Source of the DNA: Octopus vulgaris
Lineage: Eukaryota
Assembly (NCBI GenBank): GCA_951406725.2
Contig: OX597816.1
Location: 13,454,001-13,518,000 of the forward strand
Length of the DNA stretch: 64,000 bases
Direction of reading: 5' to 3'
A program made the position numbers and the translations under genes. Every line of letters begins with the position of its first letter. The first letter of the stretch is position 1. This document shows positions 11,802 to 58,073 of the stretch, one piece after another. The notes under the pieces are model-generated. The model searched no databases. It was given only the letters and a program-made list of their open reading frames with translations, and was not told where the DNA came from.

Positions 11802-11967
11802 AGGCGTAGGAGTGGCTGTGTGGTAAGTAGCTTACTTACCAACCACATGGTTCCGGGTTCAGTCCCACTGCGTGGCACCTTGGGCAAGTGTTTTCTACTA
11901 TAGCCTCAGGCCGACCAAAGCCTTCTGAGTTACGGAAACTGAAAGAAGCCCGTCGTATATATGTATG

Positions 11968-12043
<76 letters not shown>

Positions 12044-12255
12044 TGTGTCTGCGTTTGTTCCCCCAACATCACTTGACAACCGATGCTGGTGTGTTTACAT
12101 CCCCGTAACTTAGCGGTTCGGCAAAAGATACCGATAAAATAAGTACTAGGCTTACAAAGAATAAGTCATGGTGTCGATTTACTCGACCAAAAGGCGGTGC
12201 TCCAGGATGGCCACAGTCACATGACTGAAACAAGTGAAAAGTAGAGTAAAAAAGA
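11802..12255 (+). mobile_element. SINE family A (full length)
   Basis: GGCGTAGGAGTGGCTGTGTGGTAAGTAGC head, GGTTCAGTCC B-box, internal (TA)(TG) tract, GACTGAAACAAGT tail. Confidence 0.9.
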
Positions 12256-13315: not shown

Positions 13316-13533
13316 CTTTGCTCTTTAACTCTTTTACTTGTTTCAGTCATGACTGTGGCCAGGCTGGAGTACTGCCTTTAGTCGAGCAAATCGACCCCAG
13401 GACTTATTCTTTGGAAGCCTAGTACTTATTCTATCGGGCCCTTTTGCCGAACCGCTAAGTTACGAGGACGTAAACACACCTAGCATCGGTTCTCAAGCGA
13501 TGTTGGGGGACAAACACAGACACACAAACATAT

Positions 13534-13578
<45 letters not shown>

Positions 13579-13721
13579 TACGACGGACTTCTTTCAGTTT
13601 CCGTCTATCAAATCCACTCACAAGGCTTTGGTTGACCCGAGGCTATAGTAGAAGACATTTTCCCAAGATGCCACGCAGTGGGACTGAACTTGGAACCATG
13701 TGGTTGGTAAGCAAGCTACTT
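13316..13721 (-). mobile_element. SINE family A lacking its first ~23 nt (A-box), fused to the 3' end of an ORF1-like element
   Basis: Match to SINE-A stops at AAGCTACTT (13721), where ACCACACAGCCACTCC is expected. Confidence 0.88.
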
Positions 13722-14090
13722 TGTTTCATTTCATTTGCCATAGAGGCAGTACAAAGATGGGTAGCTTTGCGGACTGGACAAGACATTGATGAGGCGAATG
13801 ATAATAATACAAGATGATAAGGATGGGAGAAAACAGAAAGCGCCCGCCGACCTTCTGCTTCTCTATAACATTGTTCTTTTAATAACCCTCTTACAATTTA
13901 CAATATTTTACAATTTTTTGGACTAAGAAGTCCATTACAATTTAAAACACAATAAGACACATATTGAGGCGAAGAACCTCTTACCTCAAGTCCCCGATTA
14001 ATTCTCTTGCAACCTGCAGGCATCCCTGCATCTGCAAGTCGGGGTCCCAAGAAAGTAATCTATAATCTTCCCTTGGGAAGGAACCTGATG
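13722..14090 (-). mobile_element. 3' end of a gag/ORF1-only retroelement, copy 1 (ORF C-terminus plus 3'UTR)
   Basis: Minus strand encodes SGSFPREDYRLLSWDPDLQMQGCLQVARELIGDLR* (stop at about 13981-13983), homologous to the end of the ORF at 24286-24400. The 3'UTR shares blocks with 24034-24285. Confidence 0.7.
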
Positions 14091-14565
14091 TGTGAAATGA
14101 ATCATACTACATTGAGATTTGACTCATTCTTTCTTGTTTCAAGTTTTCTTTCATTACTGATTTCATTAATGACAGTCATAACCATTTTCCTCTTTCCAGT
14201 CTTTTTGTGTTTTTCCATTTTTATTTACTCGGTTTTCCTATTTCTATGTGAATAGAACTGAGGAGTTATCAACTTTTCTTTTGAACTGTTTTATTTCGTT
14301 TGAATCTGATGATTCTGATTTAAGTCTCTATTTTCATCAAATCTGTAATAAAAAAGCAGCCTAGCTTTTGTATGATCATGGTTTCGATTCTCGCACCGGT
14401 AGTGTGTTGTATTTTTGAGAAAATCATTTAACTTCATGTTGTTCCAGCTTACTGAACTATATATGGGTTCCAGCAATAGCTGGAGATTTAAGCCTACGAT
14501 GGACATTCAGGGGGAATGCGTTATAGTCTCATTCCCTCATACTTTATGAAACCCAAGGTAAACTC

Positions 14566-22478: not shown

Positions 22479-22583
22479 AATATTCATATTTGCACTACAA
22501 ACCTCTAATAAATGTAAGTTTCAGATGCATAGATATTTCAAATAGATCTTATAAGTACACACACACAAACACAAGCATACACA

Positions 22584-22879
22584 CATGGGATTGCACCTAG
22601 ACACAAGTCCAGGCAAGATTGTTTATGGAAGACCAGCAGTCGCCCATGCATACCGGCCTCCCCTCCCCACGCCACCAGTGTTATCCAAGGGAAAGGCAAA
22701 GGCCAATATAGCTTGGCACCTGTGACGTCGCAACTCATTCCTAGAGCTGAGTGAACTGGAGCAACGTGAAATAAAGTATCTTGCTCAAGAACACAACACG
22801 CAGCCCGGTCCGGGATTCGAACTCACAACCTCCCGAACGCAAGCTCGACGCTCTAACCACTGAGCCATGCGTCTTCACT
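22584..22879 (-). mobile_element. tRNA-derived SINE family E
   Basis: Minus strand GTGAAGACGCATGGCTCAGTGGTTAGAGCG head; same family as 53797-54144. Confidence 0.85.
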
Positions 22880-23215
22880 TTAGACATAACGATATTAATA
22901 ACCTGGTGTTGGAACTCAATATAGATATGCTTCAGAACAAAGCGCCAGTCGAGTACTGAGCATTAATAAGAAAATAAAATGAAAAAGGAATAAGAAATTA
23001 TATAATGAACTTCATTAGCCTACTGTTGTTTCCGCTGAGAGATGCAATGCACTCATAGAAGATTGCTTGTGTGTCACCCTATAGTTTCATCAGAGCTCTT
23101 TAAAGCTTCGATGTAAGGTGATAAGCAAACATTCAACTATGAATGCATTACAACTTATAATAGAAACAGTTTTACGCTAATGACATTATTTCTTGTTCCC
23201 TTGTCGTTCTAATTC

Positions 23216-23276
<61 letters not shown>

Positions 23277-23644
23277 TGTGTATATTTAGGGATAAACTAC
23301 TAGGTGGATAACCAATATGCTAGAAGTAGATATTCAGATTTTTTTATATAGGCTAAGCTACTGGTTTTAAATTGGTATTAATTAAATTAATATTCAATTT
23401 ACCTCCCTCATTATTTAAATTTATATATATATATATATAAACTGTATTCAATTAATAGAAGAAAAGAAAATGGAGAGTTGAAAGTTAATGATTATTTATT
23501 AATAAACTGATAATTCTTACTTCCTACAGCTGTTTCCATTTCTGCTCACTAAAAAATTACAAATTTATGCTTTAAATCTGCATTTATAAGTTATGCAATT
23601 ATGAGCAGAATTTCATATTTATGTGCGTGTGTGTGTTGTAGTAT

Positions 23645-24033
23645 ACTCTTACTCTTTAGTCTTTTACTTGTTTCAGTCATTTGATTGTGGCCATGCTGGA
23701 GCACCGCCTTTTAGCCGAGCAAATCGACCCCAGGACTTGTTCTTTGTAAGCCTGGTACTTATTCTATCAGTCTTTTTTGCCGAACCGCTAAGTTACGGGG
23801 ACGTAAATACACCAGCATCGGTTGCCAAGTGATGTTGGGGGACAAACACAGACACACAAACATATATACACACACATACACACACATATATATACGACGG
23901 AGTTCTTTCAGTTTCCGTCTACCAAATCCACTCACAAGACATTCGTCGGCCCGAGGCTGTAGTAGAAGACACTTGCCCAATGTATCACGCAGAGGGACTG
24001 AACCCAGAACCATGTGGTTGGTAAGTAAGCTAC
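23645..24033 (-). mobile_element. SINE family A lacking its first ~25 nt (A-box), fused to the 3' end of an ORF1-like element
   Basis: Match to SINE-A stops at AAGCTAC (24033), within 2 nt of the breakpoint at 13721. Confidence 0.88.
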
Positions 24034-24932
24034 ATTATTTGAAAAATGTTGCCACTAAGGCATTACACAGAGTAGCTTTGCGGGCTGGGCAGGAACATTA
24101 ATAAGATGAATGATAAAAAAGATGAAAATGATATTGATGGGAGAAGACAAAAATGCCCGCCGATTTTTGCTTCTCTAATATATTATTCTTTTTTTTAAAC
24201 ACAAAATGAGGTATTAAACCTCTTACGTTAATTTAACAAATCTTTTGTCTTTCACACGAAAATGAGGCAATAAACCTCTTACACTTTACTGAGACATTAA
24301 TAATCTTGCAGCCTCCTGGTAACGGTGCAGCCGCACTTCGGGTCTCCAAACAAAATAATTGAAATCTTTCTTCGAATAGCACGTTGCTATTCGAAGAAAA
24401 TCATCTTCTTTCATCAACAGTGCCACCACCTGCGGCGGCCAATGATAAGTACCAGTACAGGCCAATTCTATCAGGTCCTGCCCCACCAGAAAACTCCTTA
24501 CGAAGTTTTCAACAACCCCTCCCTTGAAATAGAATACCACATATTCTTTAATTTCACTGGGAAGGTCCACCTCTTCCGCTGTCGGTGGCACGATTCCCAC
24601 CGAAGAGACCTCGGGACATGCCGGAGGTGTGAAATGCACACCTCCGGCACTGTCTCATTCTTTTTTTCTTTTCTTTTTCAACTTTGTTGCGGGAGGGGCT
24701 GGCTCCTTCGCCATATCCTCAGGAACCTCGCCTCCACCCGCAACCTTGGGATCCCTCGGGGAGCAACCATTGTTGCTCCCATTCTTCCTCTTTCTTCCCC
24801 TTTTTCCGGGGGAAGTTACTCCCTCCTCATCCATCTCTCCTTCCGGAAGAGGAGGGGGAGTTCTGCCACAACTAACTGCTCCAGGACTCTGCTCTGGTCC
24901 TGGGGACAGTTTTTCTTAATGTGGCCAGATTC
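24034..24932 (-). mobile_element. 5'-truncated gag/ORF1-only retroelement, copy 2 (zinc-knuckle end, P/E/K-rich linker, ~100-aa C-terminal domain, 3'UTR)
   Basis: Minus strand reads ESGHIKKNCP (second half of a CX2CX4HX4C knuckle), one frameshift, PGPEQSPG..KKKRKKE*DSAGGVHFTPP..KDFNYFVWRPEVRLHRYQEAARLLMSQ* (stop 24286-24288), then a ~250-nt UTR with no endonuclease or RT ORF. Confidence 0.72.
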
Positions 24933-24959
24933 CTAGCCACTGGGCCATTGCGCCTCCAC
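24932..24959 (-). mobile_element. Isolated 28-nt SINE-C head (A-box only)
   Basis: Minus strand GTGGAGGCGCAATGGCCCAGTGGCTAGG matches the family-C 5' end and stops just before GCAGCGG. Confidence 0.8.
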
Positions 24960-25084
24960 ATGTGAATTAATAAGCAAAATATTATTAGTCATCTAATACG
25001 ACCTTCCATTTATTCCACTAGCTTCACGAGATCTGATCAAAGACTTAGATTGACGATGCATAACGAAAATCGGAACAAATATCA

Positions 25085-25275
25085 ATTCAGCTTTTAAACT
25101 CCTTCGATATAACCCACTTCTCAAGTCACACTTTCCCTTCAGTGCCATTTCCATTGTTGGAAGCATTCCTGGAACTCTTCTTATAGGATAGTGAGCAGCT
25201 GCCTCGTAGCATTTTCTTAGATTTCCTTGGCATCTTAAAATCTTCCTTTCGAGTGGAATTTTATTTTGGGAAAGA
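25085..25275 (-). mobile_element. Decayed mariner transposase C-terminus
   Basis: Broken minus frames give FPKIKFHSKGRF.DAKEI.ENATRQLLTI..EEFQECFQQWKWH..GYIEG. Confidence 0.65.
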
Positions 25276-39130: not shown

Positions 39131-39766
39131 TTCTTTTACTGGCCATAAAGTCAATATGAAAGAACGAGATACAACACGCAAAAACAGGTGGGGTTTACAC
39201 CGAGCAAAGGGATACACTACAATATTAAAGGATATAACAAGGGTATATATATAAATAGGTATTAGAGAAATGAATCATTAAGGTAATTCGGAATAAACCC
39301 AATGCAAAAGACCCGGATTACTATGTCATCCCTAAGGCACGGGGCGTGACATCTTTCAATTTCTTTCCTCCTAGTTAGAAAAGCATTCTCAAAATAGATC
39401 CATTCAGTCTTACCAGACTTTCCACTCCCGACCACATTTTGATAAACACACTAAAAGCCAGCACCTCTTTTTCTACCCTCATCTTTCTCTTCAAACGATA
39501 TTTCAATGAATTGATGAGAACTTGACCAGATAGGAAAGTGCCTGTGTTCACACCTTTCAGACGGGTCCACCACACGGCCTCTTTTGCCACAGCTACTAAA
39601 CAGAAAAAGATCTGCCATCCCTCTCTACTAAAAGAAAGTGGTGCGTCGATTCCACGATACGCTCGGCGGACATCTCGATTCGTCTTACACGAAACAGCAA
39701 CTGCTCAACACAAGCCCACAACACTCTAATGCACAGAGACTGAATGACTGCATGCAGGGCGATTTC
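39131..39766 (-). mobile_element. 5'-truncated Tx1/L1-clade LINE (ORF2 C-terminus plus 3'UTR)
   Basis: Minus strand EIALHAVIQSLCIRVLWACVEQLL..(frameshift)..FFCLVAVAKEAVWWTRLKG..FIKMWSG..RMLF*, like the post-zinc-finger ET..H....C....W and AK..IW..R region of L1/Tx1 ORF2. Confidence 0.7.
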
Positions 39767-39770
39767 CCCT

Positions 39771-40210
39771 CTGAAGTTTTCAGTCTCTAGTAGAGTCGAG
39801 TGCTGTAATTTCAGCCATTTATACGCCAGGGAAACCGAATTTATCTGGAGTTTTCAGTCCTCAGGTTAGCAACAGATATAACTCTACGTCTCTAGTAGAG
39901 TCGAGTACTGTAATCTCAGCAATTTATACGCCAGGGAAACCGAATTTATCTGGAGTTTTCAGTCCTCAGGTTGGCGACAGATCTAACTCTACGTCTCTAG
40001 TGGAGTCGAGTGCTGTAATCTCAGCCATTTATACGCCAGGGAAACCGAATTTATCTGGAGTTTTCAATCCTCAGGTTGGTAACAGATCTAACTCTACATC
40101 TCTAGTGGAGTCGAATGCTGTAATCACAGCCATTTATACGCCAGGGAAACCGAATTTATCTGGAGTTTTCCAGTCCTCATGTTGGCAACAGATCTAACTC
40201 TACGTCTCTA
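39771..40210. repeat. Minisatellite, four 105-bp units
   Basis: Units start at 39784, 39889, 39994 and 40099 (TCTCTAGT(A/G)GAGTCGA..). Confidence 0.95.
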
Positions 40211-50035: not shown

Positions 50036-50220
50036 AACAAATAAAAATGTAGAGACGGATAACCCGAAATGTTACGTATATTAATTTATTAATGGCTATT
50101 TTACTAAAGCTGGAGAATGAAGGGCAACATTATGTCCAGTAAGGTTTGAACTAAGAACACAAAGAAGCGTAACTAAAGACTAACTGATATTTCGTTCAAA
50201 TATGTTATTTTTATTCATAA

Positions 50221-51100
50221 AAGGCGGCGAGGTTGCAGAATCGTTAGCACGCCGGGCGAAATGCGTAGCCGTATTTCGTCTGCCGTTACGTTCCGAGTTC
50301 AAATTCCGCCGAGGTCGACTTTGCTTTTCATCCTTTCGGGGTCGATAAATTAAGCACCAGTTTCGCACTGGGATCGATGTAATCGACTTAATCCGTTTGT
50401 CTGTCCTTGTTTGTCCTCTCTGTGTTTATCCCCTGTGGGTAGTAAAGAAATAGGTATTTCGTCTGTCGGTACGTTCTGAGTTCAAATTCCGCCGAGGTCG
50501 ACTTTGCCTTTCATCATTCCGGGGTCGATAAATAAAGAACCAGTTTCGCACTGGGATCGATGTAATCGACTTAATCCGTTTGTCTGTCCTTGTTTGTCCT
50601 CTCTGTGTTTATCCCCTGTGGGTAGTAAAGAAATATGTATTTCGTCTGTCGGTACGTTCTGAGTTCAAATTCCGCCGAGGTCGACATTGCCTTTCATCCT
50701 TTTGGGGTCGATAAATTAAGAACCAGTTTCGCACTGGGATCGATGTAATCGACTTAATCCGTTTGTTTGTCCTTGTTTGTCCTCTCTGTGTTTATCCCCT
50801 GTGGGTAGTAAAGAAATAGATATTTCGTCTGTCGTTACGTTCTGAGTTCAAATTCCACCGAGGTCGACTTTGCCTTTTATCCTCTCGGGGTCGATAAATT
50901 AAGAACCAGTTACGCACTGGGGTCGATGTAGTTGACTTAATCCCTTTCTCTGTCCTTGTTTGTGCTCCCTGTGTTTAGCCCCTTGTGGGTAGTAAAGAAA
51001 TAGATATTTCGCATTGGGGTCGATGTAATCGACTTATTCCCTTTCTCTGTCCTTGTTTGTCCCCTCTATGTTTAGCCACTTGTGGGTAGTAAAGAAATAT
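50221..51100 (+). mobile_element. SINE-B concatemer: one head, four ~183-bp units and one deleted unit
   Basis: Unit starts at about 50271, 50454, 50637, 50820 and 51004. Confidence 0.92.
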
Positions 51101-57273: not shown

Positions 57274-57348
57274 TGCCTGTCCTGTGTATCACGTGTGATA
57301 TACATATATATTTCCCTAGCATCTGTGCATCATATATGATACACATAC

Positions 57349-57745
57349 AAGGCGGCGAGCTGGGCGAAATGCCTTGCGGTATTTCGTCTGCCGTTACGTT
57401 CTCAGTTCAAATTCCGCCGAGATCGACTTTGCCCTTCATCCTTTCGCGGTCGATTAAATAAGTACCAGTGAAACACTGGAGTCGATATAATCGATTTAAT
57501 CCGTTTGTCTGTCCTTGTTTGTCCCCTCTGTGTTTAGCCCCTTGTGGGTAGTAAAGAAATAGGTATTTCGTCTGCCGTTACATTCTGAGTTCAAATTGCG
57601 CCGGGGTCGACTTTGCCTGTCATCCTTTCGGGGTCGATAAATTAAATACCGGTTACGCACTGGGGTCAATATAATGGACTTAATCCTTTTATCTGTCCTT
57701 GTTTGTCCTATCTATGTTTAGCCCCCTGTGGGCAATAAAAAAAAG
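57349..57745 (+). mobile_element. SINE family B dimer
   Basis: Junction AAAGAAATAG|GTATTTCGTC near 57563; TSD ATATATGATACACATA. Confidence 0.88.
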
Positions 57746-58073
57746 ATAAAAATATATATGATACACATATCCATTTTTTAAAACCTCCACAGTAACTTTA
57801 GGCTTTTTGAAGGGAAGTTCTATTACACAGGACGTGTAAAACAAGGGCGAGCTAAAAGTCAGACAACAAGCATGGACGTTTATAACAAACTTATAAAAAT
57901 GCTTTGGACAGGCAAAGGTTTAAGGTTCCGGTTTGAGTAAAAGCTGCATTAGAACATTTCGTATTGACTGCCCCTGGGCTACCACAAATGTCGGAAGACA
58001 TGGATGCTTCATACGTAGCACATTTGATAAAACTTACTCTGGGATCATTGCAATGGATCGCTTTATTCACAGA

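Follow-up and report, generated by a model that had tools for sequence, protein, structure and literature searches.

An ORF1-only retroelement lineage of Octopus vulgaris that targets one base of a tRNA-derived SINE and its probable mobilisation by an autonomous L1/Tx1-type LINE

The 64,000-nt stretch of the Octopus vulgaris genome analysed here (contig OX597816.1; hereafter, the window) harbors, at 24034-24932 on the minus strand, a 5'-truncated and frame-broken copy of a retroelement. This copy very probably represents a HAL1-like, ORF1-only lineage of L1/Tx1 type which is specific for the tRNA-derived SINE family SINE-A and is mobilised by an autonomous LINE with the same target. The relevant features of the window are as follows.

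24932..24959, minus strand: SINE-C head, 28 nt, through the A box, joined to the shortened 5' end of the element
24286..24932, minus strand: 3' half of ORF1, frame-broken (half knuckle, basic low-complexity linker, C-terminal domain and stop)
24903-24932, minus strand: second half of the CCHC knuckle, part of the ORF1 piece
24289..24552, minus strand: family-specific alpha/beta C-terminal domain of ORF1p, 88 aa (model pLDDT 87.7)
24286-24288, minus strand: ORF1 stop codon
24034..24285, minus strand: 3'UTR, 252 nt, with GAGG-loop-CCTC hairpin motifs at 24264-24278 and 24208-24222
24034..24075, minus strand: terminal ~40 nt common to the autonomous LINE, with a TGCC/GGCA stem-loop at 24050-24062
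23645..24033, minus strand: SINE-A body and tail, the target, beginning GTAGC with the insertion base just past the A box
13720..14095 (end approximate), minus strand: second, older, 5'-truncated copy (end of the C-terminal domain and 3'UTR)
13318..13719, minus strand: SINE-A body and tail behind the second copy, with the identical insertion base
11803..12239, plus strand: empty SINE-A, an uninterrupted target used as reference
39131..39766, minus strand: 3' remnant of another L1/Tx1-type LINE, related to the partner but distinct from it, with a trinucleotide microsatellite at its end

Much of the layout given in the preliminary description of this copy was recovered. The SINE-C head is 89-93% identical to three further heads of this family in the window, a basic linker lies between knuckle and C-terminal domain, the domain (described as ~100 aa) was found as ~90 aa with no significant Pfam, PDB sequence or fold match and is followed by the stop codon, and the headless SINE-A body starts at 24033, behind the UTR. 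The zinc-knuckle end (ESGHIKKNCP) is present, but comprises only the second half of a knuckle in an ORF1 whose coding pieces are interrupted by stops and distributed over two frames. No ORF2 follows ORF1, the only ORF2 match in the window being located at 39423-39766, and the divergent homologue noted near 13722-14090 spans 13720 to ~14095 with an identical 3' junction. An Rfam scan of window positions 22500-25200 returned no match above threshold, and the output of a repeat search of the whole window was dominated by microsatellites.

The 5' end of the window copy is a truncation, other copies extending ~1.15 kb farther upstream. The junction between SINE-C head and knuckle has a single match genome-wide (2.8 Gb) and sits where the SINE-C A box and the knuckle codons share a microhomology of ~10 nt. 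The SINE-C head is a one-off of this copy, probably produced by microhomology-mediated deletion or template switch, and the copy itself is a dead fragment in which a single event swapped the 5' part and the SINE-A head for a SINE-C head.

A DNA search of the 2.80-Gb genome (2200 candidates, of which 40 were scored, giving 56 matches) provided 30 loci, among which the 5' end of the longer copies is fixed and located directly behind the SINE-A head. Full-length copies are ~2 kb in length and consist of a 5'UTR, a single ORF1 encoding a whole CCHC knuckle, a basic linker and the family-specific C-terminal domain, and a 250-nt 3'UTR, with ORF2 absent; 39 elements, including 6 of autonomous type, are bounded by both SINE-A head and body, and are mostly 1.8-2.5 kb long. 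When 42 of the 150 listed ORF1 matches were examined (the 30 best and 12 picked for long frames or a shared signature), the 1133-aa ORF2 of the partner LINE described below had a match at none of these loci (0/42), which upholds the classification of the element as an ORF1-only non-autonomous retroelement, without an RT ORF in its full-length copies. The element end is visible within 2 kb in 32 of the 42, and SINE-A comes next in 29 of those 32. ORF1 is open over about 390-420 codons in L173, L174, L175 and L177, and a young subfamily comprises ORF1-only copies that are 97-98.5% identical at unrelated loci. As evidenced by this young subfamily, by 5' truncations and by target duplications, ORF1-only elements spread as their own family by retrotransposition.

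Contigs of two presumed-RNA runs cover most of one young copy, whose ORF1 breaks at a homopolymer in the assembly; because these contigs carry an indel at that homopolymer, the break may be an assembly artefact. A poly-C run ahead of the knuckle in many copies (L181 and others) is highly variable in length and often breaks the frame, which may reflect slippage or homopolymer error in the assembly. Classification of the element as a tRNA-headed Pol III SINE was considered and rejected, as any head is either part of the target or unique to one copy, and the element has many T runs and encodes ORF1p; a substitute B box within its 5' end was likewise rejected on account of a poor match and many T runs.

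A pattern taken from the element terminus, in which the two final A may derive from the target, gave 85 exact matches. Among the 70 examined (L084-L086 being three local near-duplicates), 54 ends are followed by a SINE-A body in register, 3 by only the first 13 target bases and 13 by sequence elsewhere, compared with 5 of 4200 random positions in SINE-A register. The insertion site is GGTAA^GTAGC, 2 nt past the A box, so that the A and B boxes of the SINE are parted; site-specific insertion just past the A box of a tRNA-derived SINE is thereby corroborated, and random flanks are not what is seen. The wider proposal that SINEs are targeted in general is not sustained, since SINE-A alone is used: 0/70 ends lie in SINE-C, and the SINE-C head is unique to the window copy. 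Target duplications reach about 13-15 nt, and truncated copies have duplications of up to 12-13 nt that include private variants of their own targets (13 nt in L045 and 10 nt in L063). The off-target ends begin with GT in 12 of 13 cases and with GTA in 10 of 13, resembling the target, and lie away from promoter boxes; L038 and L095 show the element's own terminus and their own duplications. Exact empty SINE-A sites number 57,456 (28,847 + 28,609) and exact occupied junctions 476, about 0.8% of exact sites. Tandem arrays, in which copies are separated by a target duplication, are common, and combine ORF1-only and autonomous elements at one site.

The SINE-A head is undetectable in both window copies and in many older copies (49/85 bounded), a count to be read with the fact that the element library stopped short of the true 5' ends in part of the headless copies; incomplete boundary calling and later deletions would account for these cases. 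Outer duplications of at least 9 shared bases were seen in 0/18 headless copies versus 4% of shuffled pairs, and empty SINE-A copies are also without clear duplications.

Young elements favour a younger SINE-A variant, which is the target of 9/9 young autonomous copies (p 0.002) and 14/22 young ORF1-only copies, compared with 0/54 in an older sample and with 50% of the empty sites that match exactly. Any one of three factors, namely sequence recognition, RNA-target pairing and chromatin, could account for this preference. In the remaining 8 of the 22 young ORF1-only copies, the target is unlike the common young variant; no more than 0-8 nt of the 5' side match the copy's own target, and 7 of the 8 have there a variant common to siblings at other loci. 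Such departure from the local target, coupled with the variant shared among siblings, argues that the element's RNA starts within the duplicated bases and carries them, and these target-derived 5' bases would let the cDNA pair with the cut site. The SINE-A cut site lies within an imperfect palindrome, GGTAAGTA-GCT-TGCTTACC (for example, window 11820-11845, plus strand), which could form a hairpin and which is weakened in the younger variant.

Nine of the 70 ends carry another UTR, with an L1/Tx1-type ORF2 lying ~300 nt upstream in those stretches that extend far enough, and 8 of these 9 autonomous-type ends are located at the SINE-A site. An autonomous element with the same 3'UTR had been suggested in advance as something to look for; the autonomous LINE found has the target and only the last ~40 nt in common with the ORF1-only element, whose supposed Tx1-type ancestry is supported. 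Decayed full-length autonomous copies are present in split SINE-A (L127, L128 and L138), and a search with the RT yielded many open ORF2 frames of 1140-1150 codons among the matches listed. The full-length copy L244 (5.45 kb) is inserted in SINE-A with a 14-nt duplication and has an ORF1 in two frames, with a zf-CCHC match of 23.1 bits, above cut-off, together with Exo_endo_phos (APE), RVT_1 and zf-RVT domains; the best solved relative of the partner endonuclease is human L1 EN (E 4e-10). On this architecture (two ORFs; APE, RT and zinc-binding domain), the partner is an L1/Tx1-type LINE and a putative member of the Tx1 clade; the RT relatives found are without clade names.

Long-ORF2 copies picked on the RT alone end at the SINE-A site in 9/9 cases, and in 8/9 young autonomous copies the 5' windows fell short of the junction. 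All of the 21 older autonomous copies also end at SINE-A, a count which is no measure of specificity, as the query behind most of them held ~30 flank bases. A single target accounts for more than 20% of the partner's flanks, the share used to define target preference (PMC4494074).

Other LINEs in this genome have other ends. A sister family (L261-L263; ~74% RT identity, 1138-codon open ORF2) ends in a (TC)n microsatellite, like Kibi. The remnant at 39131-39766 had been described as Tx1-like; it is of L1/Tx1 type, but belongs to a different family, being 44-50% identical to the partner ORF2, and stops at a run of GTC/ATC/ATT trinucleotides, thereby adding a third target preference to those seen in the genome. 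Adjoining it is a degenerate tandem repeat of ~120 nt (window 39775-40197, plus strand), seen as a repeating translation, and part of another SINE family is tandemly repeated in units of 183-184 nt at 50220-50942 and 57328-57862 (families D18/D20).

The 3'UTR of the ORF1-only element had been described as a structured region of 250 nt. It measures 252 nt and its short local hairpins are conserved, but the UTR as a whole is not significantly more structured than shuffled sequence (z -1.22). GAGG-loop-CCTC hairpin motifs are present in 44/52 ORF1-only UTRs versus 0/21 autonomous UTRs, and also in 25/52 upstream control windows. The shared terminus contains a 5-nt loop on a stem of 4 bp (TGCC/GGCA), each position of which is paired in 54-59 of 60 ends, these ends having been found without the pattern; two-sided changes are few and the loop is variable. 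The terminal ~40 nt with this stem-loop is a putative RT recognition element. Recruitment of RT by a terminal stem-loop is established for stringent LINEs, according to the accessible text of PMC3747384.

The ORF1 protein evolves under purifying selection. The median dN/dS is 0.22 in 55 pairs of ORF1 N-terminal regions (dS up to 1.2), calculated by a simple counting method from real copies picked for open frames; the C-terminal domain is less constrained (0.26-0.78). In a quick tree of 87 rows, the ORF1s of ORF1-only elements group in a single branch (SH-aLRT 100) that excludes the 9 autonomous ORF1s, and identity to the partner ORF1 is 31% over 196 aa. Because of this purifying selection and low identity, the ORF1-only elements are regarded as an old lineage and not as deletion debris. 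XP_029652367, an O. sinensis 'uncharacterized protein', falls inside the ORF1-only branch; the gene model XP_029652367-9, with three isoforms, is thus a branch member carried in the annotation as an uncharacterized protein. Named relatives of ORF1 are from Octopus and Argonauta, and the relatives retrieved by a profile search among 1.8 billion proteins are almost entirely confined to the N-terminal 280 positions. ZCCHC3-like clusters appeared as feature look-alikes of the ORF1-only protein, and are mentioned as a lead only.

The C-terminal domain is modelled with three strands plus helices (pLDDT 87.7), in contrast to a pLDDT of 38 for the whole ORF1. No Pfam family was found in more than 2 of 41 members and no PDB sequence match was obtained; Foldseek gave no fold match at E 0.001, the best VIA Z being 5.1, to generic alpha/beta folds. 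Comparison of its profile with the C-terminal domain of the partner's ORF1, for which only 4 partner-side sequences were available, gave no match (probability 0.1).

Mobilisation is proposed to proceed as follows. The 5' region of the element itself would drive transcription of a ~2-kb RNA by RNA polymerase II, with the first nucleotide among the duplicated target bases, and the ORF1p made from this RNA would package it in cis. The terminal ~40 nt with its stem-loop would recruit the ORF2p of the autonomous LINE, as the shared end and target suggest, and the APE endonuclease of the latter is presumed to nick SINE-A at GGTAA^GTAGC, 2 nt past the A box. Target-primed reverse transcription would then insert a copy in SINE orientation, often 5'-truncated and with a duplication of up to 13-15 nt. 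Three tiers would result, in which a CR1-type LINE spreads SINE-A, SINE-A harbors the Tx1-type LINE, and this LINE in turn carries the ORF1-only lineage.

The preliminary description favoured a different partner, with the element and the downstream SINE-A body forming one RNA that a CR1-type LINE moves via the SINE tail, so that the 3' junction is inherited. The tail is indeed CR1-like (83% over 45 nt to the 3'UTR of a CR1-type LINE), both window copies are without the SINE-A head, element distances in 20 young copies are correlated with those of the SINE bodies (Mantel rho 0.43, p 0.011), and young occupied bodies are more uniform than empty ones (mean distance 4.5% versus 9.5%). However, the empty set in the last comparison contained degenerate copies, and age alone yields an element-body correlation. 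Behind the copies of one young subfamily lie bodies of two SINE-A subfamilies, whose changes are all private except in one probable segmental duplicate pair; 13/70 copies stop at the element's own terminus with no SINE behind it, some with their own duplications (L038, L095), and truncated copies in split SINE-A duplicate private variants. Moreover, an autonomous L1/Tx1-type LINE with the same terminus, the same target and an open ORF2 exists. Borrowing of the SINE tail is accordingly judged very improbable and the model is largely refuted, although a few composite moves may occur; the CR1-type LINE is the partner of SINE-A and not of the ORF1-only element.

The absence of any lineage, each copy being a separate internal deletion of an autonomous LINE bearing this ORF1, is if anything slightly less probable still: deleted and chimeric copies do occur, L114 joining an ORF1-only-type 5' region to an autonomous 3' end, and, as the 42 loci examined are a part of the 150 ORF1 matches listed, an autonomous family with this type of ORF1 may exist beyond them, but none of the 42 has ORF2, the stop-to-UTR architecture is common to the copies with UTR hairpins that no autonomous UTR (0/21) shares, the young subfamily recurs at unrelated loci, and ORF1 is just 31% identical to that of the partner. 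That an ORF1 fragment once fused with SINE-A and that DNA-level duplication of this fusion gave rise to all copies has a probability bordering on the negligible and is refuted by the flanks. A few local near-duplicates (L084-L086; L208/L213) fit it, but each copy has outer flanks of its own, 5' truncation points and duplications differ between copies, and tandem arrays and off-target insertions occur, all of which speaks for the independent insertions that had been surmised. A further alternative accepts the same elements but has the site set mainly by tethering to RNA polymerase III factors or by open chromatin on active SINE-A, and not by endonuclease-read DNA or RNA-target pairing. The favoured youngest SINE-A subfamily (9/9 autonomous and 14/22 ORF1-only young copies versus 50% of empty sites) and a site adjoining the A box would suit it; insertion is precise to a single base, however, off-target ends begin as the target does (GT 12/13, GTA 10/13) at sites away from promoter boxes, and the equivalent SINE-C position is unused (0/70 ends), which makes this explanation unlikely. 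Mobilisation of a SINE-A-specific ORF1-only lineage by the co-targeting autonomous LINE therefore remains the preferred reading.

Several copies are mosaic at their 5' ends. ORF1-only L144, L155 and L163-L168 start with the autonomous 5' end (first ~35 nt; cf. L127, L128, L137, L138), autonomous L133 has an ORF1-only-like 5' region, and L114 combines both types in the manner described above; 5' modules have probably been exchanged between ORF1-only and autonomous elements, in tandem arrays. A splice-donor-like AG/GTRRG is located in the 5'UTR, ~90-150 nt from the start (L021, L107, L181), in 28/43 5' ends and in 0/5 autonomous ones. A GCATGCG-type palindrome, which we take to resemble an NRF1 site, opens 20/43 5' ends, the copies having been partly selected on that motif. 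A second ORF1-bearing family (L039, L044, L051 and L096; also L069, L071 and L112), with a different ORF1 and UTR, has the same terminal ~40 nt and SINE-A site, with no ORF2 seen beside its end, and may represent an independent ORF1-only origin.

Mammalian HAL1 (half-L1) is an L1 derivative that encodes ORF1p only and whose coding capacity was long kept, as set out in the accessible portions of PMC5753468 and PMC3627910. As far as those portions describe it, the octopus element is alike in being an ORF1p-only non-autonomous LINE derivative with its coding kept, which implies ORF1p acting in cis and ORF2p in trans. It differs in its origin from an L1/Tx1-type mollusc LINE, its knuckle-type ORF1, its sequence-specific target and an ORF1p with its own C-terminal domain, and it ends in a shared stem-loop, whereas HAL1 ends in poly(A). 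Because its ORF1 is of knuckle type with molluscan relatives, and is not derived from mammalian L1 as that of a HAL1 is, the octopus element acts like HAL1 but is not a member of it.

Known Tx1-clade targets, as given in the accessible text of PMC4494074, are Mariner, piggyBac, Harbinger and LTR elements, U2, U5 and 5S genes, satellites and microsatellites; in crocodilians SINEU-3 has a Mariner target in common with Tx1-Mar, and Tx1L sits in Xenopus Tx1D. The pair Tx1-Mar/SINEU-3, as portrayed there, likewise consists of a Tx1-clade LINE at a fixed transposon site and a non-autonomous passenger with the same target, with tandem insertions that sandwich a duplication and a partnership argued from the common target. 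That text names no SINE among the targets, and the SINEU-3 passenger is non-coding, whereas the octopus passenger encodes a conserved protein. Dada DNA transposons insert in tRNA gene A boxes and Dewa in a tRNA-Leu spacer (PMC3706591, accessible text), and thus resemble the octopus case in that they insert into multicopy sequence, in or next to the A box of a promoter of tRNA type. Dada is, however, a DNA transposon of real tRNA genes and Dewa uses a spacer, in contrast to a retroelement in a tRNA-derived SINE, just past the A box.

The published Octopus vulgaris repeat library contains 80 L1-Tx1 families, 13 of them recently active, with 421 insertions and 2.29 Mb, according to the accessible parts of PMC13282606. 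Because the mean insertion length given there (~5.4 kb) equals the 5.45 kb of the partner, the latter may well be among these families; a term search of that text and supplement returned no mention of a target, nesting or an ORF1-only family, and the accessible texts of PMC8967140, PMC9115989 and PMC4824008 contain nothing on SINE-targeting Tx1 or ORF1-only families. In literature outside Repbase, Dfam, Repbase Reports and subscription papers, no SINE-targeting Tx1 and no Tx1-derived ORF1-only family was found. Each component has precedent, and the combination appears to be undescribed.

A fuller account can be offered tentatively and is perhaps no better than one possibility among several. 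It holds that this is an undescribed, recently active octopod system in which a LINE specialised on one base of a tRNA-SINE carries an old and diversified ORF1-only parasite; that target-derived bases at the 5' end of the parasite RNA, perhaps with 3' read-through, pair with the cut site and thereby keep target choice in step with the SINE subfamily that is currently spreading; and that the parasite keeps its own ORF1p (31% identical to that of its helper), with a new C-terminal fold, while swapping 5' ends with the helper in tandem arrays.

The system extends ORF1-only parasites, known from mammalian L1, and transposon-targeting LINEs, known from DNA and LTR elements, to a new setting. It also provides a natural setting in which to test why an ORF1p of its own is retained by a non-autonomous element, as the ORF1ps of helper and parasite are 69% different, have one ORF2p and one site in common and are both represented by young copies. 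By cutting SINE-A in the interval from A box to B box, the LINE puts the copies hit out of use as templates (~0.8% of exact sites; 476 occupied versus 57,456 empty), and co-evolution with the target can be measured through the shift to the youngest SINE subfamily. Finally, a sequence-specific APE endonuclease with a ~14-nt footprint is of interest for site-directed insertion.
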